Source of the DNA: Chthoniobacteraceae bacterium
Lineage (GTDB): Bacteria; Verrucomicrobiota; Verrucomicrobiia; Chthoniobacterales; Chthoniobacteraceae
Assembly: GCA_037190965.1 (NCBI GenBank)
Contig: JBBCKI010000050.1
Coordinates: 1-64,000 of the forward strand
Reading direction: 5' to 3'
Length of the DNA stretch: 64,000 nucleotides
The position numbers and the translations under genes are program-made. This document shows, piece after piece, positions 111 through 20,276 of this stretch (position 1 is its first letter; every line of letters starts with the position of its first letter). Under the pieces are notes generated by a model. It ran no database searches. It was not told the origin of the DNA and worked only from the letters and a program-made list of their open reading frames with translations.

Positions 111-2351
111 TCAAGCTATCGAGGAAGCGGCTCCAGTAATACTGACCGACATTTTCCCCGCAGGGGCCATGATGATCGCCGTCTCGAGCGTTAGGGGGCC
201 GAAACTAACGGGACTCACCTTGACCTCGTCGCAGTCCAGCTTAGCTCCCCACAACCTTGCCTGAAGCCAGGGTATAAACTGCATACTGGAGGAAACGGTA
301 TGGTCCCAGTAGATTTTCGACGTGCGATAGCTTTCCGCCCATGCATTCAGGTATTGTGGATCACCAAACCGCATCGTACAGAACCCTAAGAACCGGGCTA
401 GCGTATCCTGATGCCACTGTGGTTCGCTAGGCAAAGGGGATCGCGTCTGGGAAAAGACGTCATGATACTCCCGGCCACCCCCCATGTCCTGAACGTAAGA
501 CCATCCCTTAATACCATTCCGCTCCCATCGCTCCGCTATTAGCCAATCGGCGAACTTTCGAACGGCCGTCAGGAAGGTCTCTTCCTCGGGAAAGATCTCA
601 AGATAGTCGATGACAGGATTCATTGCCAAGAGGCCCATCCAAGGCTTGGAGATATAGCCCGCAAACTGATGCACGCCAGCTCCCCCGCCTTGATCGCCGA
701 AGCTGCCGTTTTCGCGCTGTGACTGAACGACCATCAAACATCCTTCGTAAGCGATTGTTCGATAATAGTCCGCGCCAAAATAACGATAGAGCAGGAGCGC
801 GCCCCGAAGATAGCAGGCGTCTCGGCCGACGGCGAGCCGTGGCCATGAGTTGCGATTCCGAAAATGCGAGGAGAGCGTCACCGCCTCCGCCGCCTCGATA
901 AGATAGGGATCGCCCGTTTCCAGGTATGCTGCAATCGCTCCCTGAACCCGGCTCATCGGCAAAGCGGATGCCGGGGGGAGAAAGCCGGGAATGCGCACGG
1001 CCGTGGCGGCATGATCAATGCAGACATCCGTAAAGTAGTACGCCGAACGGATCGCTGCTTCGTAATCTGCAATCTCACCAGTTCGCCAAGCGGTCAGAAA
1101 CTGCCCATAGCTAATTTCTCCCTCCCATCCGGGCTCCCGCCCTTCACGACCTTTAAAAGTTCCCTGAACGGTTTCGAGCCGTGGCAGAGCGCCATCCTCA
1201 AAACCGCCGCGGATCTGGTATTTCTCCACCCATTGACGGCTCAGATCGATCGTGCGGTCATATTCGTTTGAAACGGGAAGAAGCGGCTCGGGCTGGAATT
1301 CTTCACAGAGGCCATACCACCAAGCCGGAGGCAGATAGCGAACCACCTTGGGGGAGCGATCGGACAGGCTGAACGAGAATCGTAGAGTCCGTGCCATTCC
1401 CGCCGGAAAATCCCGGTCCTCAGCCTGGAAAAGATACGGGGTACCCGTGGCGTCCAGGGTCCCCTGTCCACCATAAAGTTCCACGCCCATGTAGGGCTGC
1501 CAGACCGTAAAGCCGTTGGCTTTCTCCTGCCAAATGGCCCCCGGCTGTTCGCGCGTGGCCAGCCGGGCACACTCGGAAAGGTCGAAGCGAATACCCCCCC
1601 ATGTGGTTTCCCCCGGTTCCAAGCCGCCCGGCCATTCTTGGTCCTCCGGCCCCGGCGCGTCGAATTTAAACCCGATCACCGGAACCGTGTCGGGGAGCAG
1701 GCCGCCTTCATCGAAGAATTTGCTATTGATATGATGGGCAAACACCTCGCAAACACCATTCGCATAGAGGCGAATGTAGAGATGGCCGTTGAGCCAATGA
1801 TGCCTGTGAAAAAGAGAGTTGAGCCGGTTCTTGTCTTTGTAATCTTCCTCTTCGAGAACCACGTGCGGAATAGCTCCACCCATCTCGATCACCCTGCATT
1901 CCGGACTTTCGTGAATCACGGTGAGACGGCAAGCCTCCCACCAGTTCACTCTATTGCCCGTGCGCAAGCCCATGACAATCCCGAGGGAGCGCTCCCCATA
2001 TTGAAGCTGCAGGAGATGCTTTTCCCAATTGATCTCGAAGGGGGCGTTCTGCGCGAAGCATTCCATCTTCGCCGAGGGAGGAACGCCCGCGAAGGGAGGA
2101 TTCTGCGACTTTGTAAGGCGCAGTTGCTTCGGCGCTTCGGAGCCGCCATCCGCAAACAAAAGAAGGCGGCGGGGCTCTGAACTGCCCGGCCATCGGCCCA
2201 AGGGCAGGTTGGCCGTTGGGCGTCCCTCCAAGGAGAAGCGCAGGCCCGCCTGCCGGGGGCAGGGAAGCGAACTCACCCATAGGCCGGCTTCTGAATCGTC
2301 GCCCAGGCGGGCGAGCGTCATGTCGTCGAGCAATCGGGCGAAATCAATCAT
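111..2351 (-). CDS. Hypothetical 746-aa protein, probably with a C-terminal alpha/alpha-barrel (lyase/glycosidase-like, resembling PcRGLX/YetA-like proteins)
   Basis: Long ORF with no signal peptide; W/Y-rich helical repeats (AAYLETGDPYLIEAAE, LLYRYFGADYYR, QRENGSF); family assignment tentative. Confidence 0.55.
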   Translation of the reverse strand: MIDFARLLDDMTLARLGDDSEAGLWVSSLPCPRQAGLRFSLEGRPTANLPLGRWPGSSEPRRLLLFADGGSEAPKQLRLTKSQNPPFAGVPPSAKMECFAQNAPFEINWEKHLLQLQYGERSLGIVMGLRTGNRVNWWEACRLTVIHESPECRVIEMGGAIPHVVLEEEDYKDKNRLNSLFHRHHWLNGHLYIRLYANGVCEVFAHHINSKFFDEGGLLPDTVPVIGFKFDAPGPEDQEWPGGLEPGETTWGGIRFDLSECARLATREQPGAIWQEKANGFTVWQPYMGVELYGGQGTLDATGTPYLFQAEDRDFPAGMARTLRFSFSLSDRSPKVVRYLPPAWWYGLCEEFQPEPLLPVSNEYDRTIDLSRQWVEKYQIRGGFEDGALPRLETVQGTFKGREGREPGWEGEISYGQFLTAWRTGEIADYEAAIRSAYYFTDVCIDHAATAVRIPGFLPPASALPMSRVQGAIAAYLETGDPYLIEAAEAVTLSSHFRNRNSWPRLAVGRDACYLRGALLLYRYFGADYYRTIAYEGCLMVVQSQRENGSFGDQGGGAGVHQFAGYISKPWMGLLAMNPVIDYLEIFPEEETFLTAVRKFADWLIAERWERNGIKGWSYVQDMGGGREYHDVFSQTRSPLPSEPQWHQDTLARFLGFCTMRFGDPQYLNAWAESYRTSKIYWDHTVSSSMQFIPWLQARLWGAKLDCDEVKVSPVSFGPLTLETAIIMAPAGKMSVSITGAASSIA

Positions 2352-2396
2352 AAGTGTTAGCGAAGATACTTGTCGGTCCGAATGGAGGACGATGGG

Positions 2397-5300
2397 TTAT
2401 CGCTTCACGGCAGGCTTCTCCTGCTTCCCGGTTGCGGCATTCGGGGCTTGAATCAAACCGTCTGCTTCCGCAATCGCGCGGGGAACCAGCAAGGACGCCG
2501 GCGATTTCGCCCAAAGAAGCGGAACCGAGTAAAGAAGCGGGAAGTGAATTCCCTGGCTCCTCATACTCACTAGCGACCCATCTTCACCCGACTCTAACGG
2601 GATTCGGTGAATGCCGACTTCGCTAATGTCCACCGTCCGGGTTTCAATCAAGGCGGCACTCGGTAGTCCCTCGTGGAAGGTCAGCCGCTGGACGATCGGG
2701 GCGAAACATTCCAGATCCAGGCTTTTCGTTCCCTTGGGAATGTAGAACCAAGCGTCAGGTTGGGTCCCTGACCGAAGGTTGGTGTAAAAGGTTTGCGCGA
2801 ATTCACCCGAACACATTCCTTGAGCCTCGTCGTAATCCAGGGTGGTCAATTTCACGGCGTTGCCCCCTTGGCCAATGACAATCCGGTAGATTCCCTCATG
2901 GATAGCGGGGATACGCACCTCCAACCACTGCACAACAGTGCCGTTTGAAAGAGTTTTCGGCTGCGGGAATTGCGCGACCATGGAGGGATCGACCCAATCG
3001 TGCCACTCCCGGGTACCTGAATTCCAATAACTGATCTCATACGGAATCGCGGTGGAGTTCTTTTGCTGAGACGCGTCGGTCGGCCAGAAGAGCTTGAACC
3101 CAATCTCCTGCCCTGCCTTTTCGGCACGGGTCAAAAAGCCGATCGGGGTATGGGCTATTCCACTATAGGAGAGCGCGTTCTCCATCGGGTTGCCGACGAA
3201 TGCCGGAATGGTCACAAGATCGTTAAGATCAATCTCTGCCGCACGGCGGCCATTCTCCAAAACGGCATCGGCAAACTCCGTTACTTCAATGGGCTGCCAG
3301 TGCTCCAGGATGGTCTTCCACCACTTCTGCGTTTCTTCATGGGTATAGTGGGCCGGCCCTCCGGCAAAATTCGCCCCTGCAAGTTCGGGTACCAGGTGGT
3401 AGCCATCTCCTTTTTTGAAATAAACGATCTGCGCGGTCAGCATCGGGGTAATATACGACATCTGGCCTTTCCACATGAATTCCTTAAAAGCCATGGAATC
3501 GGGCGTGGCCTGACCGCTTTCAATTAGATAATAAAAATACCAAAACTGCTTGAGATCATCCAACCGCAGGCGAACAGCCTCGCTGGCACCGTCGAACTTA
3601 CGGTCCGCCGCGTCAAGCAGCCGAATCGCTTTGGCCCAATTTCGCGGCGAACTTAACTTGAAGTTCTCCGGAGACATGAAGTCATAGTAAACCTTCATCT
3701 CTTGCCAGACCGGTCCGAAGGCGCGCTGGAACCACTGGTCGCGGATACGGTCAAGTTCCTCCGAAGTTATGCGGGGATTCCAAAGCACTTTGCTGGAGAG
3801 ATAATAGAACAGACCCATCTTCCCGAAATTAAGGTCCGCCTCGCCCGAGAAAGCCCGAAAGCCCGCATCGTATTTCGGTTTGTAATCGTTGATCACGGCT
3901 TTGGCGAGAGTGGATCTGCCCGCGATCATGGAAGGCACATGGTCCCTGTATCGCGAGAAGCTCAGGATCTGGTAGTCAGCCAACGGTTCCCTCGGCAGGA
4001 GAATCCGGAAGGCGGAAGCGATGTCGGTATTGGTCTTGTAGCCAACCCATTTCCCGGTTCCGCGGTGCTTGGGATATCCGGCAACCATGAGCCGAATTCT
4101 TGGGTCGAGATTAAAGTTCGGGGGAACGTCGTGGTAGTTATAGCTGTATAGTGAGGCGCGGATCAGTTCCTTCTTGGACTTCCCCGTAGAGGTGGCGCGC
4201 TCGGCTTCCGGAAGCGAGTCGATCCATTTGTCGAACTCACGCAGCAGCCAGTTATTGAATCCAAAGACCGTATCGGACGGAGCGTTGGGGTCCCAAATCT
4301 CGTTCTCTTGTTTTAATCCCCGGAAGCCGTTCAGCTTGTAAGGCCGTCCAAAAGAAAGACCTTCGGCCTGAAGGTAATCGGGATACCAGTTTGGAAATGC
4401 GGCTAGCTGGCCCATTTCCGCCATTCCCCCGCCATCTGCGGGATCGGTGGGATAAACGAAAAAGTCGTCGGGATTCTTGTCGAAGCTGGCTTCGGCCATC
4501 CTCTTTACTTCATCGAAAATCATCTGCCGAACAAATGGCACCGAGAGATCGACGGTACGTTCGAAAAACGCGTTAGGAGCCCACTGAGTCCCGTTGGAAA
4601 GGAAGAACTTCCCTGCCTGCGGCCCCTCGGCATCATTATTGATCCAGAGATGATATTTATTTTCTTCCGAAGCGGCGGGGCGCTCTGAATCCGCACCGAT
4701 GGTTGCGTGAGAGACGAGCATCCCCTTTTCCGTTCCCTGCTCGCGCATCGCTGCGATGACTTTTTCACGAAAGAGTTGAAGCGCGTGGCCGGGAAAGTGG
4801 GGCATCGATTGCCCTGCCATGCGCGTGCCCACAAGCCATCGTTGAGCGCTGATTTCGACATTCTCGTCTGCGGGATCGGGCAATTCCATGTTCCGCATGC
4901 TCAAGGTGCCGGCTCCGCCATGCTGCCCACAGGTGAAATGGATATTGCGAATGTAAAAACCGGGGCGTCCTGACTCTTCCAGCAGGAAAGTCAGCGGCTT
5001 GCCGTGGTAGTCGGGAACATGCGTCCAGTTCGGGCCAACGCCGAGCGTCTCGTAACCGACGGACTCAAGCAGCGCCACCGCTCCGGCGAGCAGACCTTCG
5101 GTGGTATTGGCAACCACCAGAAGGCGCTTCGGTTCCGAGCGAATGAAGTATGCTTCCTTATCGTTGTAATCGTCTTCATCGGACCTCCGTAGCGCCTCCT
5201 TGACTGCCGGGTCGTCCTGAATTCCTTTCGAGGCGTGGCTGATCAAAGTAAACACAACGCCTTCTGAATCACCCTCGCCCTCTTGGATGGTAACTTCCTT

Positions 5301-5570
5301 TCCCGTCATCCGTTGAACGGCTTCCTGGAAGTACCAAGCCGCCGCCAGAATCGGTTTTGCGGGATTCGGCAAAGGACTGAACAGATGACGCTTCACATCA
5401 TCCCAACTGAACTCCTTGACTTGCTCATCTACGCCTGTCCCCCTGATGAACAAAGATGCCACTCTGCCGTCCGGCTTGGTCAATGAAAACGGAGCGGGTT
5501 CCGCGTTGAGCGTTCCGGCAACGAGGATGAGGGGCAAGAATAAGTTGAGGTGAATTTTGTTGGCAAACAT
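2397..5570 (-). CDS. Secreted divergent DUF4838-type protein (putative glycoside hydrolase-like), ~1057 aa
   Basis: Signal peptide MFANKIHLNLFLPLILVAGTLNA; N-terminal EAYFIRSEPKRLLVVAN..GLLAGAVALLESVG segment; YSYNYHDVPP and YYLSSKVLWNP..QRAFGP motifs. Confidence 0.65.
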   Translation of the reverse strand: MFANKIHLNLFLPLILVAGTLNAEPAPFSLTKPDGRVASLFIRGTGVDEQVKEFSWDDVKRHLFSPLPNPAKPILAAAWYFQEAVQRMTGKEVTIQEGEGDSEGVVFTLISHASKGIQDDPAVKEALRRSDEDDYNDKEAYFIRSEPKRLLVVANTTEGLLAGAVALLESVGYETLGVGPNWTHVPDYHGKPLTFLLEESGRPGFYIRNIHFTCGQHGGAGTLSMRNMELPDPADENVEISAQRWLVGTRMAGQSMPHFPGHALQLFREKVIAAMREQGTEKGMLVSHATIGADSERPAASEENKYHLWINNDAEGPQAGKFFLSNGTQWAPNAFFERTVDLSVPFVRQMIFDEVKRMAEASFDKNPDDFFVYPTDPADGGGMAEMGQLAAFPNWYPDYLQAEGLSFGRPYKLNGFRGLKQENEIWDPNAPSDTVFGFNNWLLREFDKWIDSLPEAERATSTGKSKKELIRASLYSYNYHDVPPNFNLDPRIRLMVAGYPKHRGTGKWVGYKTNTDIASAFRILLPREPLADYQILSFSRYRDHVPSMIAGRSTLAKAVINDYKPKYDAGFRAFSGEADLNFGKMGLFYYLSSKVLWNPRITSEELDRIRDQWFQRAFGPVWQEMKVYYDFMSPENFKLSSPRNWAKAIRLLDAADRKFDGASEAVRLRLDDLKQFWYFYYLIESGQATPDSMAFKEFMWKGQMSYITPMLTAQIVYFKKGDGYHLVPELAGANFAGGPAHYTHEETQKWWKTILEHWQPIEVTEFADAVLENGRRAAEIDLNDLVTIPAFVGNPMENALSYSGIAHTPIGFLTRAEKAGQEIGFKLFWPTDASQQKNSTAIPYEISYWNSGTREWHDWVDPSMVAQFPQPKTLSNGTVVQWLEVRIPAIHEGIYRIVIGQGGNAVKLTTLDYDEAQGMCSGEFAQTFYTNLRSGTQPDAWFYIPKGTKSLDLECFAPIVQRLTFHEGLPSAALIETRTVDISEVGIHRIPLESGEDGSLVSMRSQGIHFPLLYSVPLLWAKSPASLLVPRAIAEADGLIQAPNAATGKQEKPAVKR

Positions 5571-5901
5571 ACTAAGAGAAGAAGAAAATAGGTTACTTGC
5601 GGCAAGGCGTCCGCGCCCTTTTTCGAGGATATATTCGAATCCCCCGGTCCAAACCCGAGTTTCCGAAGCTGGCCGCCGCGATCTCGTGCAACTTTCTGAG
5701 TGTAAGTCTGGCTGCAAGCGGCGCCAGGAGTTCGTCTTATCGTAAAGATGCAGCGAACGTCTCCTTAGCTTGCTTTCGCATCAAGCTCCTGCGAACAATT
5801 GCGTTCGCTTCAAAATTAAAGTTTGGATTAAAGCGGTGCGACTTTCCCATTGAAGGGATTTTTAACTTCCTTCCAAACCGACTCTGACTGTCGAACCCAA
5901 C

Positions 5902-7557
5902 TCAGCAAGCGGTGCGCGAGCTCCGCCGGCGCTGACGCCAGAGGATACTCGCCAGCCCGACTCCCAGGATACCGATGGTGGAAGGCTCGGGAATCACGTT
6001 GGTCAGATAGATGTAGTTCGGACCAGATCCATCAATCTGTCCCCACTTCAGTTCGTCGTAAGAAAGCCAGGAGGGCGCGATGAGTTCCGTGATCTCAGGC
6101 GCTCCAGTGAAGCTGGCGGCATCGTATTGGAACAAGATCAGATTTCCACCGTAATTCCATCCCGTTCCGTCATAGTTTAGTTCCAATTTGAACTTATTGA
6201 GAGTAAACGATCCGGCCGTCATTCCGAGAATATGGACGAGAGGCGAGCTTTCATTACCCCAGGTGAAAGCCAAAGTCGAGTTTGCGCCGATAGCAACCGT
6301 GGTTGCCGTAAGACTAAACGTATCCAGATTAATCCTTGAGCCGCTTGTCAGCGTAAACTTGCCAGTATTAGCTACGCCCTGGACCGTTCTCAGATCATGT
6401 TTGAGAACAATATTGCCGGCCTGGCCCGTAGCTTCCCCTACTGTAAAATTGGTTGTGAGAGCCGTCCGAGCGATCCACACATCCTTTTGCGTGGCAATAC
6501 CTCCCGCGAAGATGATTCCGCCTGCGGCGCCGCCGCCATAGTCAATCGCGTTGTTCGTTCCGCCCTTGTCGGTGAAACTTCCGGCAACGATAAACTTGAT
6601 CCCATTGACCAGCTCAAGATAGGAACCGCTGCCGTTCGTTGCGGCATTATACGTCACGTTTCCTTGCACTCGATTCTCCTTCGACGCAAGATTGGTACTC
6701 AGCATCATCTTGATCGAATTCGTATTACTCGTCGAATTGCCCAGAATCAGATTACCCAAGGGGGAATCGTAGATGAGGTAATTGGTGGTCGTGCCCCCCG
6801 CTCCGAACGCGAGATCAAGGGTCGAGGTCGGGGAGAAGTCCCAGCGCCCTGCGAGCTTATTGCTGTTTGGACCAGTTGGCTGGACATAGTTTTGAGCAGT
6901 AACTCTAACGGTCACATTGTCCTCGACCTTCACTACCCCCTCACCCTGGAGCAGGTTTGAGATCTCGAAAACCCCATTTGCAGCCGCGCTGGAGTCCTTG
7001 ATGGTGTAATTTCGCGACTTAAGGATGTCGCCTCCAGCTGGCCCCGTGGAAAATTTATAACCGTTCAGGTCAATCAGCAGGCGGGCCGGATCTCCCGAGG
7101 TATTCTTAAATGAGGAGGGGGGAAGCTGTACGGTTGAGAGCGCAGTGTCGGTAACCGTCAGTGCGTTCCCCAGCTTCAACGTCGTGCTTCCGGTGGCTCC
7201 GGCATGCGACAACGTGAGGGAATCGAGACTTGTCGCCACGTTAGGCGTATTGAGAATGAGGTTTCCGTTCGTGCTGTTTTCAATGGTGACATACGCAAGA
7301 AGTCGGTCTCCAGAGGGGGGGATGAAGCTACGGGGGTAGATCCATGCGGGGGTCGACGCGGGAGGATTAGACGAAGTCCAGCCGGTACCATTCCAAGTTG
7401 AGGAAACCCAACTCGACGTGGCGCTCCAGTTGTATTCGCCATCGGTTCCGCCTCCCCAATCGGATTTTATATAGAGGGTAGCCGCTTGAGCGGTGGGGAT
7501 AGCCATTGCTCCAACGGCGATGAAACAGCAAACAGATACGCATTTTGTCATGTTCAT
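5902..7557 (-). CDS. PEP-CTERM sorting-domain surface protein
   Basis: Signal peptide; G/T/N/S-rich beta-type body; C-terminal IPEPST + TM helix + RQRRR. Confidence 0.92.
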   Translation of the reverse strand: MNMTKCVSVCCFIAVGAMAIPTAQAATLYIKSDWGGGTDGEYNWSATSSWVSSTWNGTGWTSSNPPASTPAWIYPRSFIPPSGDRLLAYVTIENSTNGNLILNTPNVATSLDSLTLSHAGATGSTTLKLGNALTVTDTALSTVQLPPSSFKNTSGDPARLLIDLNGYKFSTGPAGGDILKSRNYTIKDSSAAANGVFEISNLLQGEGVVKVEDNVTVRVTAQNYVQPTGPNSNKLAGRWDFSPTSTLDLAFGAGGTTTNYLIYDSPLGNLILGNSTSNTNSIKMMLSTNLASKENRVQGNVTYNAATNGSGSYLELVNGIKFIVAGSFTDKGGTNNAIDYGGGAAGGIIFAGGIATQKDVWIARTALTTNFTVGEATGQAGNIVLKHDLRTVQGVANTGKFTLTSGSRINLDTFSLTATTVAIGANSTLAFTWGNESSPLVHILGMTAGSFTLNKFKLELNYDGTGWNYGGNLILFQYDAASFTGAPEITELIAPSWLSYDELKWGQIDGSGPNYIYLTNVIPEPSTIGILGVGLASILWRQRRRSSRTAC

Positions 7558-7571
7558 TGAGGGTTAATAAC

Positions 7572-7606
7572 AGCGTATCTATTTTTTCAAAACTGTCTAC
7601 AGATTT
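7572..7606 (-). promoter_or_regulatory. Candidate sigma70 promoter of the PEP-CTERM gene with an overlapping palindrome
   Basis: TAGACA-N16-TACGCT on the minus strand; CTGT-CT-ACAG dyad (7593-7602) over the -35. Confidence 0.4.
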
Positions 7607-9701: not shown

Positions 9702-9730
9702 TTTACAAAAAATAAATGCGCTTCTATTAT
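9702..9730 (+). promoter_or_regulatory. Sigma70-type promoter upstream of the DUF4838 gene
   Basis: TTTACA-N17-TATTAT. Confidence 0.55.
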
Positions 9731-9842
9731 CGAGGACAGTGAGGAGTTGAGAGGGGAATCCGCGTGAGTAGATCGGCCCTCCGGTCAGCCCTTTTGTTTC
9801 CATCTCATGGATCTCACTCGCCTTTTACAACCTTCCTCCAAA

Positions 9843-12167: not shown

Positions 12168-12412
12168 TCTGCGGGTTCTCCAGGATAAGGATTGTCAGGT
12201 CGATCGGCTGGGGCAGTCCGGGCCGCGGCGGCTCCTCGCAACGGCCCTCCTGGGACCGTTCGGCGGCAATTTCCCCTCTTGCGTGCGGTGAAAAGCAGCT
12301 AAATTCCATCAACAAATCCTCTCACCCTTTCCGTTCTCCGGCATTGCTTACAGGATCAACATCGCTGCGTATCGACTTGCGTGACGACTATGTCACACCG
12401 CTTTCAAGAAAC

Positions 12413-13459
12413 ATGCAAGGCCCCTCCCATGCAAAAGTCGTCAGCGAGCGGAAGCGCCCCTCCAAAAAGTTGGGCCTCTTTGCCAAACGATTGCTCTCGG
12501 GAGATGCCGGAAGAAGCAGTGGCTTTACGTTATTGGAACTGCTGGTTTCCATGGCGTTGGTTGTGATCGTCGCCGGCCTGAGCTTCTCCATAATGGCTGC
12601 GATCACCTCCGCATGGAGGGCCCACAAAACACGGGTTGGCGCTTTTGGAGACGCTCGCGTGGTATTCGAGACGCTGACCAATCGGCTGAGCCAGGCGACC
12701 TTGAATACCTACTGGGATTACGATAATCGAGGTGCACCGACACGGTATCTCCGGAAATCGGAGCTGCACTTCGTCCAGGGCCAGGCATCCTCGCTTATTC
12801 CCAATCTTTCCAACGCCGTCGGGCAGTGTGTATTCTTCTGTGCCCCTCTTGGTGTGAATGAAAGCGAGACGTCCCGGCCTCTTTTCAAGATGCTTTCAGC
12901 CTGCGGTTTTTACGTCCGCTTTGGAGTGGATCGAAATCGGCCTTTGTTCGTCGACCAAAGGCTTGCACATCGCTACCGCTTCCGGCTCTACCAATTTTTG
13001 GAACCGGGTGAGCGGCTGCGCATCTATGAAGCCGGCGTGCAGGGAACTTGGTACTCGGACGATCTTGCGGACTGGTCCTTCCCGATGGCTGAGAACGTTA
13101 TAGGATTGATCTTGCGCGTTCGCTATCCTGATGGAAGCGGAAACACGGAGACCTATAATTACAATTCGCGCGACGGGGTTGGATCGAATTCCCCTCCCAT
13201 CACGATGCACCAGCTGCCCCCTGTCATCTCCGTGACGCTCGTGGTGATCGACGAAAATACGGCCCTACGGCTTGCCGATAAATATGGAGACGCCATGCCT
13301 CCCATTCTGCCACCCACAAACGCCTTCACCTCCGACGGTCGGTATGAAGATGACCTCTCGGAATGGGAAGATAAGTTGAAACTCTTCACTACAAAAATCG
13401 ACTACAGAATCCTCACCGCAGAGGTCTACTTGCGGGGAACGAAGTGGAGTAGCCAATGA
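12413..13459 (+). CDS. Verru_Chthon cassette protein C (prepilin-type N-terminus, GspJ/PilW-like)
   Basis: G|FTLLELLVSM cleavage motif; LSQATLNTYWDY, YLRKSELHF and HQLPPVISVTLVVIDE; start uncertain (ORF open from 12164). Confidence 0.88.
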   Translation: MQGPSHAKVVSERKRPSKKLGLFAKRLLSGDAGRSSGFTLLELLVSMALVVIVAGLSFSIMAAITSAWRAHKTRVGAFGDARVVFETLTNRLSQATLNTYWDYDNRGAPTRYLRKSELHFVQGQASSLIPNLSNAVGQCVFFCAPLGVNESETSRPLFKMLSACGFYVRFGVDRNRPLFVDQRLAHRYRFRLYQFLEPGERLRIYEAGVQGTWYSDDLADWSFPMAENVIGLILRVRYPDGSGNTETYNYNSRDGVGSNSPPITMHQLPPVISVTLVVIDENTALRLADKYGDAMPPILPPTNAFTSDGRYEDDLSEWEDKLKLFTTKIDYRILTAEVYLRGTKWSSQ

Positions 13460-13478
13460 TATCTCAGTTCCCGTATCC

Positions 13479-13952
13479 ATGAATACAAAAAGGTTTTTAG
13501 CTGAGGAGTTTGAAACGCGGCTATCTCCCACCTGCCGAAATGAGGACGCGTTTTCATTGGTCGAAGTCGCCTTCGCCATCGCCATTTTGAGTTTTTCGCT
13601 GATGGCGATGATGAGTCTCGTTCCTGTGGCACTTAAGGCATCGAGAGACTCGATCGATAAAAACCTCGAAATTGAAATATTACAGGTGGTTCGCGCCAGT
13701 CTTCTGAATTCTCCTTACAGTAGCTTGGCTGACAGTGGCAGCTTTTTTTTTGATGCCGACGCCTCCCTGCTAGGCACCACGGAGCAAACGGAGGAAGTGC
13801 GCTTCAAGGTCGACTATGTTAATGAGGAATCGACAAATTTTCCGGCGGCGCAAACGGCTCTCGGTCTTAGAACATCCCGTCTACGGATCGAAAATGTGCT
13901 CACGAAACAGGTCCGGCAAGCTTCCCTGCATCTGCCTGATAATGGACTATGA
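13479..13952 (+). CDS. Verru_Chthon cassette protein B (GspI/PilV-like)
   Basis: A|FSLVEVAFAIAILSFSLMAMMSLVPVAL; short body with FFFDAD. Confidence 0.85.
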   Translation: MNTKRFLAEEFETRLSPTCRNEDAFSLVEVAFAIAILSFSLMAMMSLVPVALKASRDSIDKNLEIEILQVVRASLLNSPYSSLADSGSFFFDADASLLGTTEQTEEVRFKVDYVNEESTNFPAAQTALGLRTSRLRIENVLTKQVRQASLHLPDNGL

Positions 13953-14587
13953 GAGTTCTCCAGCCTGGCGATCACAGGATAGGTGAAGGGACGGTCCAAC
14001 CGTTACCCGCTCGCTCGGGATTTACGTTGCTCGAGATGCTCGTGGCGATTTCGATTATCATCATTCTGATCACCCTCGCCGTTAGAGGTATGGGAAACGT
14101 CCTTGATGGGAGACGCATGGAGGAAGCCGGTCGGATTGCCCTGGACGAGATTAATCTTGCAAGGCAACTCGCCGCCTCTCGGAACCTGAATGTCGAAGTT
14201 CGCTTTATAAAAAAGCCACGTAGCACGGCGGCGTCCGCAACGTACCACGCTCTGCAAAGGGGAATGATCGAAAAGGATGGAACCTTTACGCCGATAACGG
14301 GGATTACCGCCCTGCCTGACGGAATTATCTTTGCGCCAGAGGGCTATCTTTCCTCGATGATCGACGCTCTCCCAAAGCGGAACGATAGCTCGGGATACAC
14401 CTATACCTCGGTAGTCATCCGACCGACCGGCATGATCGAGCCACAGCCCGGACTGGCCTTGAATGTTCCCTGGTTTGTTACGGCGATTTATGAAAAGGAC
14501 ATCGGAAAAGGCGAAGAGAACATTTCCAATTTCGTGACTCTCCAAATCGACCCCTGGACTTCCCGTCCCGTCCTGTATCGCCCCTGA
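13949..14587 (+). CDS. Verru_Chthon cassette protein D (GspH/FimT-like)
   Basis: G|FTLLEMLVAI; LARQLAASRNLNVEVRF; C-terminal NFVTLQIDPWTSR..YRP; overlaps B by ATGA. Confidence 0.88.
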   Translation: MRVLQPGDHRIGEGTVQPLPARSGFTLLEMLVAISIIIILITLAVRGMGNVLDGRRMEEAGRIALDEINLARQLAASRNLNVEVRFIKKPRSTAASATYHALQRGMIEKDGTFTPITGITALPDGIIFAPEGYLSSMIDALPKRNDSSGYTYTSVVIRPTGMIEPQPGLALNVPWFVTAIYEKDIGKGEENISNFVTLQIDPWTSRPVLYRP

Positions 14588-14597
14588 TGCTTCTCCC

Positions 14598-17500
14598 ATG
14601 ACAGCCATACCCAATTTTTTACGCCCGGCCAGACGCCGCCGAGGAGCGGCGCTGATCATCGTCTTGAGTATTATCTTCCTCGCTTCGGCGCTTGTCGTGG
14701 CTTTCATGATGTCGGTTCGCAATGACCTCACCAGCGTCGTCTACTACAAAGCGGGAAAAGAGGCGTTCGGACTGGGAGAAACGGCTCCCAGCATCGTGAT
14801 GAGCCAAATCCGTGAGGCGACCCTCTCCGGGATCGACTCCGACGGCTTGGGAACCCATGCATGGGCGAGTCAACCTGGAGCGATCCGAGTCTGGGATGAC
14901 CAGCGCAACCTCGTTCAGATTTACAAGCTCTACTCCGCCGCCCAAATGAAGGAGACGAACATGGATTTCCTGGAGACCGAGATTCCCACGGATTGGGCCC
15001 AAAGGCCCAATGAATTCGTCAATTTAAACGAACCGGTGGCTAGTACCAGCGGGAGCAATGTATTCTGGCACTATCCGATTCTTCGCCCGGACGCCCTGGG
15101 AAATATTCCCGGACTCACTTCCTCCCAGACGGTTCCGCAGGGTTCTGTCGTCGGCGACCCACGGGTTTGTATGCCGGTTCGCTGGCTCTACGTAAGCAGC
15201 GATGGCAACTTGAGCGAGAGCATCCAGAGCGATTCGGTGGGACGCATTGCATTCTGGACCGACGATGAGACGTGCAAGGTAAATATCAATACCGCCTCCG
15301 CAACGGCTTCGAACACCAATGTGGAGAACTTTCCGCCATCAGGATCCGCCGCAGGCGCAGAGAACAAGCTGGGCTACAGTTACTGGAATATTCCCTACGG
15401 TGCGCTAACAGAGGACTACAACCTCGCTCGCGTGGGTCTTAGCGAGGGCGAGTTCCAGCGATACGGCGGGCATCCCGCCACTGTCAACCTGTTAACGGTG
15501 CTGGCAGGCACAGCATTTGACGCGCTGCCTGAGTCGGGCAAAAAGCAAACGCTTAAGAACGTGTTTTCTCTCTTTCCCGCTTATCGTTGGGGCGGATCTG
15601 AGAATAACCGGATCCCCTGGAGCTTGGATAGCGTCAAAATTTCGCTTACCGGGTCCAACCAAAAAAGCGAACGCCTCTACGCATCCGTCGATGAGCTTCG
15701 GTTCAAGGCAAGTTTCTCCGGCAACCATCGCGAAAAGAATACGCTGCCCGCCGGTACGGGCGATGAAGAAACCCGCTTGAGCGCTTGGCGCTTCCTTTTG
15801 ACAGCATCGAGCCGCGCGCCGGACCTCAATCTCTTCGGTCAGCCTCGAGTCGCCATTTGGCCTCTCAGCATTGAGGATAATGAACTTCACCGCACTCCGC
15901 AAGATACCCTTATTGCGTTTTGCTCAACCTATGGATCTTCAGCCGTCGCGGCAAAGAAGACCTACTATTTTACCCGCAAGGATCCCCTGAGCCAAACGGT
16001 GGACTGGGCGGAAATTCCGAGGAATCGAGCGCTTTTTGCTTATCTGCAACGGTTGACCTCACGAGACATTCCAGGTTTTGGCGGCAACTTTCTTGGCAAA
16101 TATGACAGCGGAGACGGGGTCGCTGGAGAACGCGACCAGATTCTCACGGAAATCTTCGATTACATCCGTTGCGTAAACCTCAACGAGGCCTCCAGGTCCA
16201 AACCAGCGGGATTCGTGAGCTACACTCCAACCGTTGACCCTCCGGACAGTGCAATCGTCAACATCAATGCATACTACAGTTGGAGCCTTGCTAATTATAT
16301 GAACTTCCGCGGTGCCGGTATGGTGCTGCCGATCTTGATCAACCAGGGAGGGATCACGACTCGCGGCGCAGGGCGTGTCCCGACGCTTTCGGAGGTTGGC
16401 TTGTTTGCCATGCAAGCCGCAAAGCCCACACCTCCCACCGAGCCGAGCGGAAAACTTCAGACGGCTTTATTTTTCGAAACCTTTTCGCCGATGCAAGGGT
16501 ACATGCCCTGGACGCCGCTCGATTTCCAACTTTCCGTGCAAACTGCAATGACGGTGGCGGGGGAACCCGTCTTTTTGAATGCCGATGCAGGAGCGAGCAC
16601 GACGCCATTTAACCGAACGATGACATCCCCCACGGGGCCTGATTATGGCAATCAACCTATTGGAGGAACCGATGGATTCGCCTGGATAACCGGAAGCAAC
16701 CTGAACACCTATCCCTTTGGAAGAAACGAAGCAAAGACCATCCCTGTTTCTATACCCCCATCGGGCGGATCATCCCCCGGAGTGGCAGTTTCACAAGCCG
16801 ACGTCATTATCGATTTGAAGATGGCCGGAGTTCTTTATCAGCATTGCGAAGTGGAATTTCCGGCAGCCAATCTTCCGATTCCCGACCCGTCGACGAAAAT
16901 GTATTTATCGAACCGCCGCACCATCGGGGGCATAAACTTCGAAAAGGAAGACGTGGTGCACAGCATTGTGCCGAAGGACGGTGACTACCGAATCATGTCC
17001 TACCTCCAGGATGTGCCCAAGGGCTTTTTCCGCAAGCATCCCGATTACGGAACAAGCAAGCATTTCGCCCATAGCTTTCGTTCACGCAGAAACTGGGGCC
17101 AGAAGGGTTCGACAATCAACGATGGAACCACCAACGGGGCGTTTACTTCAATCGCCCATACCGATGTCGATCTGGGATCAAGCGGTTATAATGCCTTCTG
17201 GACCGATCGACCCGATATCCCTCCTGATATTACCGACCTTATCGCCAAGGGCTGGACAGGCGATTGGAACAACGGAACCGGCGACTTTCCTGACGGCGCC
17301 TATCTAGGTAAACCCGACGACGGAATACGCAACGTCATTGCGTCGGGGCTTTACATTGGCACCGAGTTTAACTGGTACACAGGTGCGGGCTTCTTTTCCC
17401 CGACAGTCAAGATGCCCTCTGCGGTGATGTTTGGCTCTCTGCCGACTGGAGTGAAGCGGACGGAAGCCGCCTATCGGTCTGGCAACGACGCAAACGCCGC

Positions 17501-18257
17501 TCCATGGCGAACTTTGCTTTTCTGTAAAAATCCCGCGGCGGGAAATGCACACTATGGAGCCACTTCACCGCATGACAGTTTGCTCCTTGACCTTTTCACG
17601 ATGCCGGTCGTGGAGCCGTACGCAATCAGTGAGCCCTCCTCGACTGCAGGCCGCATCAACATGAACTACCAGATGCTTCCTTTTACTAATATTGAACGTT
17701 CCACCGCCCTTCATGCCCTGCTGAGCTCACAACGGATCACTGCCTATCCCGACTCTATTGCGGCCCTCCGGGGTGGACACCCTGACCCTGCTGTTATGGG
17801 CTCGATTCAGCAGAACACTACAAGAATCTATCATCCCATCGACATTGCCGAAACACTCAAACAGTTTTCGGACCGCTTTGCACAGGGTGAGCTTTTCCGT
17901 AGTCCGGCCGAAATGTGTTCACTCTGGCTCGTGCCCAATGGTGTCAACCTCTCCGGGACTCCCGCTTGGTGGACCTCGCATCGCGCCACTGGGAAAAATC
18001 TCAGGGAGCGCCCTTACGCGACGATCTATCCACTACTAACGACCAAATCAAACACCTACAGTGTTCACGTATGGGCTCAATCTTTGGTGCGGGGAACCAC
18101 GAAGGTGACTGGAGAATACCGGGGCTCCACAATGATCGAACGCTATATCGACCCAATGGACGAACGCCTTGGTGACACTTCATATGATCCGGATACCCAT
18201 TCCCTCGAGCCCCTTTACCGCTTTCGGGTATTGGAGGTAAAACGCTTTGCACCCTAG
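14598..18257 (+). CDS. Verru_Chthon cassette protein A (large GspK/PilX-like, 1219 aa)
   Basis: RRRG|AALIIVL with no Glu5; WASQPGAI, GRIAFWTDDETCKVNINTA, DLNLFGQPRVAIWP, EPYAISEP.STAGRINMNYQ and ERPYATIYPLLTTKSNTY blocks. Confidence 0.92.
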   Translation: MTAIPNFLRPARRRRGAALIIVLSIIFLASALVVAFMMSVRNDLTSVVYYKAGKEAFGLGETAPSIVMSQIREATLSGIDSDGLGTHAWASQPGAIRVWDDQRNLVQIYKLYSAAQMKETNMDFLETEIPTDWAQRPNEFVNLNEPVASTSGSNVFWHYPILRPDALGNIPGLTSSQTVPQGSVVGDPRVCMPVRWLYVSSDGNLSESIQSDSVGRIAFWTDDETCKVNINTASATASNTNVENFPPSGSAAGAENKLGYSYWNIPYGALTEDYNLARVGLSEGEFQRYGGHPATVNLLTVLAGTAFDALPESGKKQTLKNVFSLFPAYRWGGSENNRIPWSLDSVKISLTGSNQKSERLYASVDELRFKASFSGNHREKNTLPAGTGDEETRLSAWRFLLTASSRAPDLNLFGQPRVAIWPLSIEDNELHRTPQDTLIAFCSTYGSSAVAAKKTYYFTRKDPLSQTVDWAEIPRNRALFAYLQRLTSRDIPGFGGNFLGKYDSGDGVAGERDQILTEIFDYIRCVNLNEASRSKPAGFVSYTPTVDPPDSAIVNINAYYSWSLANYMNFRGAGMVLPILINQGGITTRGAGRVPTLSEVGLFAMQAAKPTPPTEPSGKLQTALFFETFSPMQGYMPWTPLDFQLSVQTAMTVAGEPVFLNADAGASTTPFNRTMTSPTGPDYGNQPIGGTDGFAWITGSNLNTYPFGRNEAKTIPVSIPPSGGSSPGVAVSQADVIIDLKMAGVLYQHCEVEFPAANLPIPDPSTKMYLSNRRTIGGINFEKEDVVHSIVPKDGDYRIMSYLQDVPKGFFRKHPDYGTSKHFAHSFRSRRNWGQKGSTINDGTTNGAFTSIAHTDVDLGSSGYNAFWTDRPDIPPDITDLIAKGWTGDWNNGTGDFPDGAYLGKPDDGIRNVIASGLYIGTEFNWYTGAGFFSPTVKMPSAVMFGSLPTGVKRTEAAYRSGNDANAAPWRTLLFCKNPAAGNAHYGATSPHDSLLLDLFTMPVVEPYAISEPSSTAGRINMNYQMLPFTNIERSTALHALLSSQRITAYPDSIAALRGGHPDPAVMGSIQQNTTRIYHPIDIAETLKQFSDRFAQGELFRSPAEMCSLWLVPNGVNLSGTPAWWTSHRATGKNLRERPYATIYPLLTTKSNTYSVHVWAQSLVRGTTKVTGEYRGSTMIERYIDPMDERLGDTSYDPDTHSLEPLYRFRVLEVKRFAP

Positions 18258-18275
18258 CCTGAAAGCGGTGTCCTA

Positions 18276-20276
18276 ATGAAGTATCATCTTAGATTTCAAA
18301 TCGTGCCCGGAGCGGATGTTGCCTCTCGGGCCAGTTCCCTAACCGCCTTTTGCCATAGATCCGGCGTGGAAGAGGTCGTATTATTCATTGCGGCGGAGGA
18401 ATGGAACAATGGATTGCTTTCCAAAAGCTCATGGGAAGAATGGAAAGCGTGTCTCCAATGCGCCAAGACTATCCTCGAAGGGTCGGGCTTAGCCGTCAGC
18501 CTCAATCCATGGATGACAATCCTGCATAGCGATCGGGGACGGCGCATGCCTTCCGAATTATCTCTGGAGCGGATGGTTTCGCCCAGCGGAGGGATCTCGA
18601 AAGCATGTGCTTCTTTCGGAGATGAGAAGTTTGTCACTTACATCCGGGAGATGTATCGCTCCTTCGCCGAACTCGGCTTCCGGGTCATATGGATCGAAGA
18701 TGATTTTCGTTATCACAACCACTATCCCCTCGATTGGGGCGGAGGTTTTGAAGACTGCATTCTCCAGGAGTTTTCCCGCAGGATAGGTCGCCCTGTCTCC
18801 CGGGAAGAAGTGGTGAAGAATATCCTCCTTCCGGGGCCTCCACACCCCTGGCGATCCCAATGGATGGAGCTTTGGTTTGATCTTCAGTGCGAAGTTGCAA
18901 AAGCGATGGCCGGCGCCGTGCGAGAGGGCGGCAAGGGACATTCAATTCTTGGTCTCATGTCGTCGTCGCCTTCCGCCCATAGCGTTGAGGGCAGGGACTG
19001 GAAACGTCTCTTCTCAGCACTGGAAATTAGTGGCCGACTTGTCCACCGGCCCAACTTCGCTCCGTACGAGGATACGCATTCACGTTTTCATTCGCTGTCT
19101 ATTCAGGCACTCGATCTTCAGAAGCGTTTCCGAAAGGATAGTTACGAAGTCGCCCCCGAAATTGAGAACATGCCATTCTCCAATTGGGCAAAGTCCGACC
19201 GACAAACCTGGATGGAGATGGCATTAACGGCTTTCTCAGGGGCGGATGCTGTGCTACTTGATCTCTTTTCATTCTGCGGCAACGACGTCGATGATGAGCC
19301 GCTCGTGGAAACATTGCTAATTCGTAGTCGGCCGGCGTTGGATTGGATCAGCAAAAGGTTTTCCAAAGACCTCAGAAGTGTAGGGGTTGAGGTCCTGTGG
19401 CGCGAAGACGCATCTCGCAAGGTCGAAACCAAGCAGGGTCGGAACATGCAGGAGCTGATCACCGATCCTTTTGCTGCCGGGCATTTCTTGCTCCGGTACG
19501 GCGTCCCTGTTTCACACGCTCATTCCCAAAAGGTGGCTGCGATCTTCGGCGACATCGCCTGGGCAATAGACGAGAGCGTGTTGCTGGCCCGACTGGACGG
19601 CGGTCTGCTTCTGGACGGTACCGCAGCTTGGATTTTGTATCGACGGGGATTTGGGGAAATGCTCGGCTTAAAGAATATCAGCATGATCTCGCGGGACAGT
19701 TCAAATTACTCCCTGGAGGCTTTTCGCGTTTCAATCGACCCATTCGGAGTCGGCCTAAAACTGAGTTGCAACTCCCAGCCTGGCATCGCCTCCGTCGAAC
19801 CTCAGAATGAAGCCATGGTGTGGAGCGACATTCTGCGTGCCGACGGGTCCCGGCTTTGTCCCGGTGCCTTGGGCTGGGATTTGCCGCAAGGGGGGCGCAT
19901 TGCGATACTGGCGGCAGCCAGCCCGAACATTCTTCCTCCATCTCATCCCCGGCAACTACTTACCCAAAGAATCATCCGTTATCTGGAAAAAGAAGAGCCG
20001 CGAATTATCGTAGCCATTGGCTCCCCCCATATTTACCCGATGCAGTTCGAGAACGGAGCAAATCGTTATTGGGTGCTCTTGAATGCGTCAACCGATCCCG
20101 CAATACCCGCCATCGACGGCTCTCTGCCGATAGATCCGACCATCAATCTCCTGAAGCCTTTGGAGTCTCCGGTCACATTGAAAAACGAGCTTCTTCCGTC
20201 GCCCTCGAAAGCGCGGATCTCGTGTCCGTTCGAGATTCCGCACATGGGCTTTGCCGTTTTTTCGTGGAGCATTTGA
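18276..20276 (+). CDS. Hypothetical glycoside hydrolase-like (TIM-barrel) protein
   Basis: 666 aa, 18 bp after cassette A; SLNPWMTILH, IWIEDDFRYHNH and APEIEN motifs; no signal peptide; function inferred. Confidence 0.55.
   Translation: MKYHLRFQIVPGADVASRASSLTAFCHRSGVEEVVLFIAAEEWNNGLLSKSSWEEWKACLQCAKTILEGSGLAVSLNPWMTILHSDRGRRMPSELSLERMVSPSGGISKACASFGDEKFVTYIREMYRSFAELGFRVIWIEDDFRYHNHYPLDWGGGFEDCILQEFSRRIGRPVSREEVVKNILLPGPPHPWRSQWMELWFDLQCEVAKAMAGAVREGGKGHSILGLMSSSPSAHSVEGRDWKRLFSALEISGRLVHRPNFAPYEDTHSRFHSLSIQALDLQKRFRKDSYEVAPEIENMPFSNWAKSDRQTWMEMALTAFSGADAVLLDLFSFCGNDVDDEPLVETLLIRSRPALDWISKRFSKDLRSVGVEVLWREDASRKVETKQGRNMQELITDPFAAGHFLLRYGVPVSHAHSQKVAAIFGDIAWAIDESVLLARLDGGLLLDGTAAWILYRRGFGEMLGLKNISMISRDSSNYSLEAFRVSIDPFGVGLKLSCNSQPGIASVEPQNEAMVWSDILRADGSRLCPGALGWDLPQGGRIAILAAASPNILPPSHPRQLLTQRIIRYLEKEEPRIIVAIGSPHIYPMQFENGANRYWVLLNASTDPAIPAIDGSLPIDPTINLLKPLESPVTLKNELLPSPSKARISCPFEIPHMGFAVFSWSI

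Follow-up and report, generated by a model that had tools for sequence, protein, structure and literature searches.

The window, i.e. the whole 64,000-nucleotide stretch analysed here, derives from an assembly representing a 97% complete genome, and its left end carries a Verru_Chthon cassette surrounded by carbohydrate-type genes (Table 1). Four adjacent same-strand genes in the order C-B-D-A (12413-18257) lie between a DUF4838 gene and a predicted TIM-barrel gene, an arrangement described in an earlier note on this DNA and borne out by open reading frames and profile matches; all ten genes listed there were found on the strands given. The TIM-barrel gene indeed begins 18 nt past the stop of A, D overlaps B by 4 nt, and the other gaps from C through to the 666-aa gene measure 10-19 nt. 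Position 1 is the contig end, placing the locus further left beyond reach, and no regulator gene was found within 1-20 kb, with the left border of the locus missing; at the sister locus on contig C24, LacI- and GntR-type regulators are present. In agreement with the earlier note, genes for a TonB receptor, for SusC/D or for an ABC transporter are absent from 1-20.3 kb.

Table 1. Features at the cassette locus, with window coordinates.
Feature	Position	Strand	Basis
746-aa protein, PcRGLX/YetA-like or GH127-like	111-2351	-	language-model features, score 0.96
~1057-aa protein, remote DUF4838 relative	2397-5570 (ORF to 5717)	-	own DUF4838 profile
551-aa PEP-CTERM protein with signal peptide	5902-7557	-	PF07589 and TIGR02595 pass
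Gfo/Idh/MocA oxidoreductase	8178-9326	-	PF01408, PF02894, PF22725 pass
DUF4838 protein with signal peptide (likely start 9843)	9807-12167	+	PF16126, 146 bits
Cassette protein C, GspJ-like position	12413-13459	+	TIGR02599, PF07963, prepilin motif; start from gene call
Cassette protein B, GspI-like size	13479-13952	+	TIGR02598, prepilin motif
Cassette protein D, GspH/FimT-like	13949-14587	+	TIGR02596, prepilin motif
Cassette protein A, 1219 aa, predicted giant GspK/XcpX-type cap	14598-18257	+	TIGR02600
Variable beta-rich insert of A, residues 533-882	16194-17243	+	lowest identity across homologues
666-aa protein, predicted GH42/GH164-like TIM barrel, no signal peptide	18276-20276	+	structure model
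Short remnant, XRE-type helix-turn-helix-like	20570-20730	+	six-frame reading
tRNA-Gly(TCC)	21092-21165	-	3' end toward low-GC island; GC step there

The cassette proteins C (259.4 bits on TIGR02599, cut-off 256.5), D (88.2 bits on TIGR02596, cut-off 70) and A (782 bits on TIGR02600, cut-off 332) exceed the cut-offs of their models, and B stays below its own (43.7 bits on TIGR02598, E 3e-11, cut-off 51.4), this model being its best match and its position the expected one. Prepilin starts of the form G/A-F-x-x-x-E are found on C, B and D, PF07963 is matched on C and D and weakly on B, and these three small prepilins give weak GspH/I/J matches, for D to GspH at E 1e-5. Protein A begins RRRRGAALIIVL, a GspK/PilX-type N-terminus without the glutamate. 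The cassette agrees with the NCBIfam A-D set (TIGR02600, TIGR02598, TIGR02599, TIGR02596) in comprising four adjacent same-strand genes and in occurring in many copies per genome; these models are names without function, which are here tied to a predicted GspK fold and to glycan loci. Nine further complete cassettes of this genome score below the TIGR02600 cut-off for A.

The predicted model of A (pLDDT 90.5, pTM 0.92) aligns with XcpX (5vtm_X; Z 11.8, rmsd 4.1, 245 residues aligned) and GspK (3ci0_K; Z 11.4, rmsd 3.4, 253/280 aligned), the next match reaching only Z 4.8; Foldseek returned nothing at E<=0.001. Based on this model, A is predicted to adopt a GspK/XcpX pilus-cap fold, and the cassette has the look of a tip set for a pilus or pseudopilus. 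It resembles the type II secretion (T2SS) tip GspH-I-J-K (ETEC GspIJK, 3CI0; P. aeruginosa XcpVWX, 5VTM), which is required for secreting folded periplasmic proteins, in its prepilin N-termini, the K-type start lacking glutamate and the predicted cap. However, the T2SS cap comprises ~300 aa, whereas A is four times larger and holds a 350-residue variable insert. Similarly, GspH-I-J-K are encoded with gspC-M, whereas the cassette lies outside any gsp operon, in ~14 copies, with no T2SS machine genes between positions 1 and 20 kb. Conservation across A is lowest in the insert (identity 0.20 versus 0.35-0.48, in the distant homologue group), which within the whole model yielded just weak beta-sandwich matches (Z<=4.2) and a weak match to Amuc_1102 (Z 3.5); structure comparison of the whole model identified no known carbohydrate-binding fold in A. 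We consider the insert a candidate specificity domain.

The companion genes point to carbohydrate metabolism through their predicted activities, with a DUF4838 protein bearing a GH2-type domain, a GH42/GH164-like fold and a Gfo/Idh/MocA oxidoreductase side by side. Of the two DUF4838 genes claimed earlier, the one next to the cassette passes Pfam, and its C-terminus, a GH2-type sugar-binding-like domain, matches GH2 enzymes (E 7e-6). The other has no match to PF16126 at E<=0.01 and is a remote relative only, as detected at E 2e-21 when 13 DUF4838 proteins from the same genome served as profile; it has a signal peptide and hydrophobic N-terminus, and a 55% paralogue in the sister locus on C29. 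The gene previously termed alpha-barrel lyase-like is present as well. Its 746-aa product has no Pfam match, PDB match or signal peptide, resembles PcRGLX/YetA and GH127 proteins in a language-model search, has paralogues (52-54%) on C24 and C2, and is likely a cytoplasmic glycan enzyme. The 666-aa protein is predicted to have GH42/GH164 architecture, i.e. a TIM barrel with accessory domains, since its model (pLDDT 92.7) matches these families over the whole chain (Foldseek TM 0.63-0.64, E ~1e-18) at 9-14% identity; no family match was found at sequence level (Pfam, PDB profile), no paralogue in the genome and no counterpart in the sister loci. The Gfo/Idh/MocA and PEP-CTERM genes, placed on the other strand by the earlier note, both pass their profiles. 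Among 7997 candidates the PEP-CTERM protein has 4 matches at E<=1e-8, and it aligns with the PEP-CTERM proteins of 6 sister loci nowhere outside the tail; it is predicted to be a fast-evolving, locus-specific surface protein.

The claim that the cassette recurs in many copies holds for this genome, which encodes ~14 complete cassettes and 28 single prepilins. Among 165 non-cassette genes at 16 other cassette loci, 21 match GH, CE, BNR or DUF4838 families, compared to 3 of 125 genes drawn from 20 random windows (Fisher p 0.001), and the counts rise to 39/165 versus 4/125 (p 5e-7) when Gfo, LacI/GntR-type regulators and sodium symporters are included. Four of the 16 loci (L031, L039, L040, L045) show no strict CAZyme match. 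The genome has 15 DUF4838 genes; 13 of them have a cassette or single prepilin no more than 10 kb away and the remaining two are at contig ends, and for 12 of the 15 such a pilin module is found within 5 kb (p 3e-6 against the low-GC3 background). Near cassettes alone, the association is weaker against this background (4/15, p 0.035; at 10 kb 5/15, p 0.066), with single prepilins being the partner in 8/15 cases and cassettes in 5/15. The enrichment anticipated by the earlier note is thus seen here, but DUF4838 genes pair more often with single prepilins, and the cassette-only link is marginal once GC3 is matched. Sister loci retain the companion set in shuffled order, as seen in two genomes, and at L070 enzyme and PEP-CTERM genes are interleaved among the cassette genes. 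Judged by sequence identity, tip and enzymes do not strictly co-vary: at L068 A is 63% identical but DUF4838 43%, whereas at C29 the values are 46% and 61%. The window and five sister loci each encode one PEP-CTERM protein, mutually unrelated, and a PEP-CTERM gene lies no more than ~120 bp from many single prepilins. Such pairs also adjoin HemS with a haem-type ABC transporter, and Fur with CobW, which are uptake-type loci.

Conventional import receptors are scarce. The whole assembly gives one TonB barrel match, two plug matches and no SusD (PF07980) match; the earlier note named a SusC-like transporter just left of the window as counter-evidence, and the assembly contains no SusC/D partner, the plug matches lying mid-contig elsewhere (C62, C45). 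The host is a soil-type bacterium, almost without standard outer-membrane importers. Regarding the shared machine that the earlier note postulated, a MUL2-type set and retraction ATPases are encoded elsewhere in the genome: Amuc_1098/1099/1100-family genes on C18 and four PilT-family genes, all over cut-off. None of the window genes matches the Amuc_1098-1102 families. Two ordinary T2SS operons (C13, C52) each possess their own small, normal-sized GspK-like gene, and several GspD/GspE/GspF-like genes and an exosortase are also found.

Across the family, the glycan link holds in this genome but many distant cassettes stand outside a glycan context, often with housekeeping or giant PEP-CTERM genes around them. 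In a scan without matched control, to which 105 further selected genes did not belong, 8 of 120 neighbour genes of distant cassettes were CAZyme-like, in 6/15 loci; L109/L110 adjoin dnaN, Rrf2 and an encapsulin, and L078/L111 adjoin giant PATR/PEP-CTERM genes with no CAZyme match, as do L124 and L143 by motif. DUF4838-like genes occur in 5/78 related loci and in none of three pilin-rich genomes tested, and two DUF4838 genes of other genomes sit in polysaccharide-synthesis loci. Among 41 genomes from another family of the class, the median of plug matches per Mb is 1.7 in five pilin-rich genomes and 7.7 in the remaining 36 (p 6e-4), where pilin counts are first-look candidate numbers and kin are not independent; once the five are left out, the correlation disappears (rho -0.08), and many A-like candidates also occur in G096 and G057, which have 18 and 10 plug matches. 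In the pilin-rich G099, CAZyme-like genes make up 21 of the 50 genes flanking giant K-like genes, compared to 0 of 39 control genes.

Based on these data, we propose, with a probability of roughly 0.45, that the four cassette genes build a locus-specific, A-capped tip on a shared retractile type IV-like pilus for glycan capture. B, C, D and A would be matured by prepilin peptidase and assemble in the manner of GspI/J/H/K, after which the tip would prime a filament. The machine for this would be encoded elsewhere in the genome, the most plausible candidate being the MUL2-type set on C18 together with PilB/PilC on C3 and PilT on C56/C68. This machine is favoured because both ordinary T2SS operons own a small GspK. 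The A insert would then bind the glycan, aided by the PEP-CTERM surface protein of the locus, and retraction would bring it through the secretin into the periplasm, where the two DUF4838-type proteins would cut it, prior to complete breakdown in the cytoplasm by the signal-less 746-aa, 666-aa and Gfo proteins. The tip would thereby stand in for SusC/D, to which it is unrelated. This replacement, already suggested in the earlier note, is favoured by the predicted GspK fold, the enrichment, the lack of SusC/D and the shared machine, but the association is weaker family-wide and export explains the same gene order. More tentatively, many Verrucomicrobiota may import glycans and other large nutrients via one retractile MUL2-type pilus with dozens of interchangeable locus-encoded tips; each tip would be a giant-GspK cassette or a single prepilin, paired with a surface protein of the PEP-CTERM kind.

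The polysaccharide utilisation locus of Bacteroidota is defined by SusC/SusD. The present locus shares with it the clustered glycan enzymes and sugar oxidoreductases, and other cassette loci the LacI/GntR regulators and symporters, but it has no tandem susC/susD and no TonB transporter. In the same phylum, Akkermansia MUL loci mediate mucin transport and processing, and MUL2 (Amuc_1098-1102) is likewise a pilus-type system tied to glycan attachment and uptake (PMC13174399); however, MUL2 forms a single core locus encoding machine parts, whereas cassettes recur as tip sets specific to their loci. In Planctomycetes, dextran is described to bind pili-like fibres (PMC5394234), and such fibres have been proposed to bind and import polysaccharide as a 'fishing rod' (PMC5394234, PMC12078418). 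The passages considered here assign no genes to the fibres, whereas the present work provides candidate genes. Verrucomicrobiota are major glycan degraders with an uptake mechanism termed largely understudied (PMC13174399), and the locus offers concrete candidates, namely a catalogued four-gene family without function (predicted pilus tips), the variable insert of A and a shared machine that includes retraction ATPases. Our analysis adds a controlled enrichment test, shows that this genome also encodes a MUL2-type machine and contrasts TonB with pilin content in a second family. A multi-tip pilus, if true, would represent a TonB-independent counterpart of SusC/D and explain selfish polysaccharide uptake in receptor-poor Verrucomicrobiota.

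The main rival, which we regard as unlikely, is that a cargo-specific type II secretion tip exports the PEP-CTERM protein of the locus and/or the signal-peptide DUF4838-type enzymes, with fragments entering via porins or another route. The GspK fold predicted for A suits secretion equally well; A is nearest to T2SS GspK/XcpX, not to a type IV pilus adhesin, and the unrelated PEP-CTERM proteins of the sister loci, the giant PATR/PEP-CTERM neighbours of distant cassettes, the prepilin-PEP-CTERM pairs and the Gsp-like genes with exosortase all fit export. However, the two T2SS operons already hold normal-sized GspK-like genes, and the PEP-CTERM motif occurs in just 12/43 long related loci. Export also leaves the outer-membrane crossing of haem-size or oligomer cargo unexplained in a genome with two plug matches, and does not account for the TonB-receptor scarcity of pilin-rich genomes. 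It is improbable, too, that the tip is a substrate-specific adhesin tethering the cell to glycan particles, with surface enzymes nearby and nothing pulled through the secretin. Such a role agrees with the variable insert on a conserved cap, with the giant adhesin-like neighbours at some loci and with MUL2 being described as mediating attachment to glycan particles (PMC13174399), but the haem-ABC and Fur/CobW loci share the pilin and PEP-CTERM pairing with no obvious need for attachment, and the outer-membrane entry route stays unexplained. Import by a retractile pilus, export and attachment predict different outcomes for deletion mutants, making the question directly testable.

That cassettes and glycan genes merely gather in mobile low-GC islands without shared function is very improbable: the island beside tRNA-Gly, the low GC3 of many cassettes, the marginal GC3-matched cassette-only test and the 666-aa gene missing from sister loci would fit, but the companion set is kept and interleaved in shuffled sister loci of two genomes, the C-B-D-A-666 aa genes are tightly spaced, the GC3-matched test for all pilin modules is significant (p 3e-6, above) and G099 shows the same pattern. 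The locus itself is a low-GC island, with GC 0.53-0.57 left of tRNA-Gly(TCC) and ~0.60 right of it and with its genes between the 4th and 12th genome percentile in GC3, and the tRNA gene is likely its right border. The short remnant between the 666-aa gene and the tRNA, which is reminiscent of XRE-type helix-turn-helix genes, has an 81% DNA match to C4:17426-17538.

We propose that the Verru_Chthon cassette would act as a tip, specific to its locus, for a retractile pilus shared between cassettes: the tip would capture glycan, and the pilus would then carry the captured glycan to the periplasm. We regard this as the most economical reading and give it a probability of roughly 45%; it would account for the multiplicity of cassettes, the variable insert of protein A, the carbohydrate enrichment and the scarcity of receptors, as well as for pairs of pilin and PEP-CTERM genes beside haem-ABC and Fur/CobW genes. 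Roles may differ between cassettes. That the cassette is a pilus-tip gene set inside a glycan island is well supported, its function being predicted.

The window opens contig C50 of a genome that is 97% complete at 4.21 Mb, and ten genes were called between positions 111 and 20276 (see table). As the earlier note had claimed, the four prepilin-like genes are indeed embedded in a glycan locus, C-B-D-A lying among DUF4838, GH42/GH164-like and Gfo genes. Gaps of just 19, -4, 10 and 18 nt along C-B-D-A and the 666-aa gene suggest a single transcript; the DUF4838 gene ends 245 nt before cassette C. GC is 0.53-0.57 in this region versus ~0.60 past the tRNA-Gly gene; by GC3, the nine island genes measured rank in the 4th-12th percentile of the genome. 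The region is an island, the left end of which is missing at a repeat at the contig start; this 80-nt repeat, which recurs with 80-92% identity on some ten other contigs, is probably the cause of the assembly break. The visible part of the island contains no integrase, and C50 no further att-like duplicate of the tRNA-Gly end. Elsewhere in the genome, at G000:C4:65547-73007 (L031, L149), the tRNA-Gly 3' end occurs in two partial copies around integrase, SUKH and RHS-repeat genes, a segment immediately following another cassette. The HpnI-like and HpnK-like genes, both below cut-off, lie in normal-GC DNA just beyond the island.

Features of the window, with positions on contig C50
Feature	Position	Strand
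80-nt repeat	1-86	
746-aa protein	111-2351	minus
1057-aa protein	2397-5570	minus
PEP-CTERM protein	5902-7557	minus
Gfo/Idh/MocA enzyme	8178-9326	minus
DUF4838 protein	9807-12167	plus
Cassette C	12413-13459	plus
Cassette B	13479-13952	plus
Cassette D	13949-14587	plus
Cassette A	14598-18257	plus
666-aa protein	18276-20276	plus
tRNA-Gly	21092-21165	
HpnI-like glycosyltransferase and HpnK-like deacetylase genes	21278-23441	
tRNA-Leu(CAG)	60271-60354	

NCBIfam cut-offs are passed by A, C and D, with B slightly below. The model of A (residues 23-1219, built from a 62-sequence alignment; pLDDT 90.5, pTM 0.92) was placed by a wide structural search of 48,161 chains alone, as Foldseek returned nothing at E<=0.001 and sequence searches of the PDB nothing significant. 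Two clear rows emerged, the T2SS pseudopilus cap subunits XcpX (Z 11.8, rmsd 4.1, 245 aligned) and GspK (Z 11.4, rmsd 3.4, 253/280 aligned), far ahead of the third, the competence pilin ComZ (Z 4.8), and A is therefore predicted to be a GspK-type cap with a core built from both chain ends. Residues 533-882 form a beta-rich insert in the model with weak structural matches (Z<=4.2), no known lectin or CBM fold being listed for it in the wide search with the insert within the A model. It is the least conserved region of A, with an identity of 0.20 in the distant group versus 0.35-0.48 elsewhere in the protein. The three smaller proteins, B, C and D, begin with prepilin motifs and match GspI/J/H weakly; we infer from T2SS precedent that they may assemble as a tip. 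SusC/D and T2SS systems serve as the background for comparison; we class the cassette as a member of neither, and rather as a variation on the known minor-pilin tip complexes. Alternatively, the cassette may be a cargo-specific secretion device exporting the PEP-CTERM protein or the enzymes of its locus, which fits the GspK fold of A and the giant-adhesin loci and which we nevertheless consider rather unlikely.

A carrier for the proposed capturing tip could be any of several pilus or secretion machines, as the genome encodes more than one: among 39 proteins scanned for machine parts, ordinary gsp operons with small GspK-like genes were found on C13 and C52, Amuc_1098, Amuc_1099 and Amuc_1100 family genes above cut-off on C18, and two PilB/GspE-like ATPases with a PilC/GspF-like gene on C3. 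Genome-wide there are five secretin matches, five assembly ATPases, four PilT-family genes above cut-off and one exosortase. De novo gene calls (3400 genes) combined with a prepilin motif scan yielded 82 prepilin-like genes, comprising cassette genes (14 complete cassettes and 3 truncated by contig ends, with five A genes passing TIGR02600), 28 single prepilins and ordinary T2SS/T4P pilins. Receptors are few, with one TonB barrel match, two plug matches, both mid-contig on contigs other than C50, and no SusD match in the genome. The single prepilins (for example L147, L151, L153, L165 and L169) are ~200-290 aa long, and an H-x(7-12)-D/N-G tail is present in most; a PEP-CTERM gene often adjoins them, and they occur in glycan, haem-ABC and Fur/CobW loci (122/127 selected neighbours scanned).

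MUL1 and MUL2 of Akkermansia mediate mucin transport and processing, MUL2 (Amuc_1098-1102) being a type IV-like pilus locus with lower conservation in Chthoniobacterales (PMC13174399). Further papers describe pili-like fibres bound by dextran (PMC5394234), a 'fishing rod' hypothesis (PMC12078418) and Akkermansia PilQ and PEP-CTERM proteins (PMC4960237), and in the accessible text of the paper defining PEP-CTERM the word 'cassette' is absent (PMC1569441). Our searches, with thin coverage of subscription papers and supplements, found no literature naming the Verru_Chthon cassette, a published link being possible, and, within the same limited coverage, none joining Verrucomicrobiota pili and prepilins to PULs, or minor pilins to uptake and TonB. 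Attachment without import would fit the description of MUL2, and we hold it to be improbable.

Capture and import of glycan by the tip agrees with the gene neighbourhoods of this genome. Seventeen stretches surrounding the 16 other cassette loci contain 165 non-cassette genes of >=60 aa, and all of these were compared with 125 control genes, taken from 20 random 8-kb windows that keep a distance of >=10 kb from every cassette. GH, CE, BNR and DUF4838 matches, families sorted by eye once the match lists had been seen, make up 21/165 neighbours versus 3/125 controls (p 0.001), and 39/165 versus 4/125 (p 5e-7) with Gfo, LacI/GntR-type regulators and sodium symporters added; genes sharing a locus are not independent in these p values, cassette neighbours have GC3 below most control windows, and counted genes at three loci (L036, L041 and L047) lie partly 8-16 kb from the cassette. 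Four of the cassette loci have no strict carbohydrate match. Chance co-location of cassette and glycan genes is poorly supported and highly improbable. Of the DUF4838 genes above cut-off, 15 in all, five have a cassette no more than 10 kb away, eight have a single prepilin no more than 5 kb away, and the remaining two sit at contig ends; against a low-GC3, length-matched background, 12/15 lie near any pilin module (p 3e-6). Six of 43 Gfo genes have a cassette within 5 kb (p 0.006). The genome-wide enrichment near CAZyme/DUF4838 genes anticipated in the earlier note thus holds here for the carbohydrate families, whereas for DUF4838 and cassettes alone it is marginal against the same background (p 0.035 within 5 kb and 0.066 within 10 kb).

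The carbohydrate activities of the island enzymes are putative. The model of the 666-aa protein (pLDDT 92.7) matches GH42 and GH164 at TM 0.63-0.64 (identity 9-14%), and the protein is therefore likely a glycosidase, its family unnamed. PDB sequence searches with this and the 746-aa protein gave nothing significant; the latter falls near PcRGLX/YetA and GH127-like proteins by language-model features only. Since named close relatives of the 666-aa protein (46-47%) belong to Latescibacterota, Lentisphaerae, Omnitrophica and other phyla, and the gene is absent from sister loci, it is likely a later arrival in the operon. At its C-terminus the DUF4838 protein carries a GH2-type sugar-binding-like domain. 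The 1057-aa gene, taken in the earlier note as a second, minus-strand DUF4838 gene, was rejected as a literal member, a search with a profile derived from the genome's DUF4838 proteins making the product a remote DUF4838 relative. By N-terminal hydrophobicity, both DUF4838-type proteins and the PEP-CTERM protein, which is almost without relatives, are exported, and the 746-aa, 666-aa and Gfo proteins are not. The DUF4838 family is not purely catabolic, as copies at L180 and L181 sit within polysaccharide-synthesis clusters (O-antigen ligase, Wzz, epimerases).

The same A subfamily occurs on C24 and C29 of this genome and at three loci in one Chthoniobacteraceae genome. These sister loci hold DUF4838 genes, a PEP-CTERM gene and a gene of the 1057-aa or 746-aa type in shuffled order, their PEP-CTERM proteins barely aligning with one another, and at L070 companion genes are interleaved with cassette genes. 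There, a PcRGLX-like gene between C and B (L070:17307-20069) has an open frame continuous into pilin B, to be explained by a fusion or by an internal start. Tip and enzyme similarity are uncoupled (A 63% and DUF4838 43% at L068; 46% and 61% on C29). Related loci, 78 from the best 80 of 674 matches, are, where titled, all Verrucomicrobiota or unassigned, the closest being Chthoniobacterales. A DUF4838-like gene is present in 5 of these 78, all in the closest group, a count from noisy greedy ORF calls, the loci being later re-called with a trained model. From 225 distant neighbours selected at 27 loci, the first 120, from 15 loci, were scanned: 8/120, across 6 loci, are CAZyme-like and 5 are sulfatases, the remainder including housekeeping and giant PATR/PEP-CTERM genes. 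Given these two counts the glycan link is not family-wide.

In a second family of the class, 41 genomes were drawn evenly, with prepilin-type N-termini counted as first-look TIGR02599 candidates and three plug counts standing at at least 94. The five genomes with >=5 candidates per Mb have a median of 1.7 plugs per Mb versus 7.7 in the other 36 (p 6e-4), at a threshold set after the data were seen and with one genus common to two of the five; the Spearman correlation is -0.36, and -0.08 once these five are left out. Counter-examples come from a hand-picked 34-genome comparison, biased by choice and serving this purpose only: A-like candidates are numerous in G096 and G057, which nonetheless have 18 and 10 plugs. 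Another genome, G124 (7.4 Mb), has 273 first-look candidates and 16 plug matches. No TonB receptor was found beside DUF4838 loci of receptor-rich genomes among 19 genes scanned from three loci. In G099, one of the five pilin-rich genomes, a weak A-type start opens 17 long frames. Around its A-like loci (seven fetched, one dropped for size), 21/50 neighbour genes are CAZyme-like versus 0/39 in seven evenly spaced control windows. Its loci L182-L188 hold giant K-like genes, similar to A at the N-terminus only and mostly without adjacent B/C/D; they lie in dense CAZyme clusters, each accompanied by a partner of ~250 aa.
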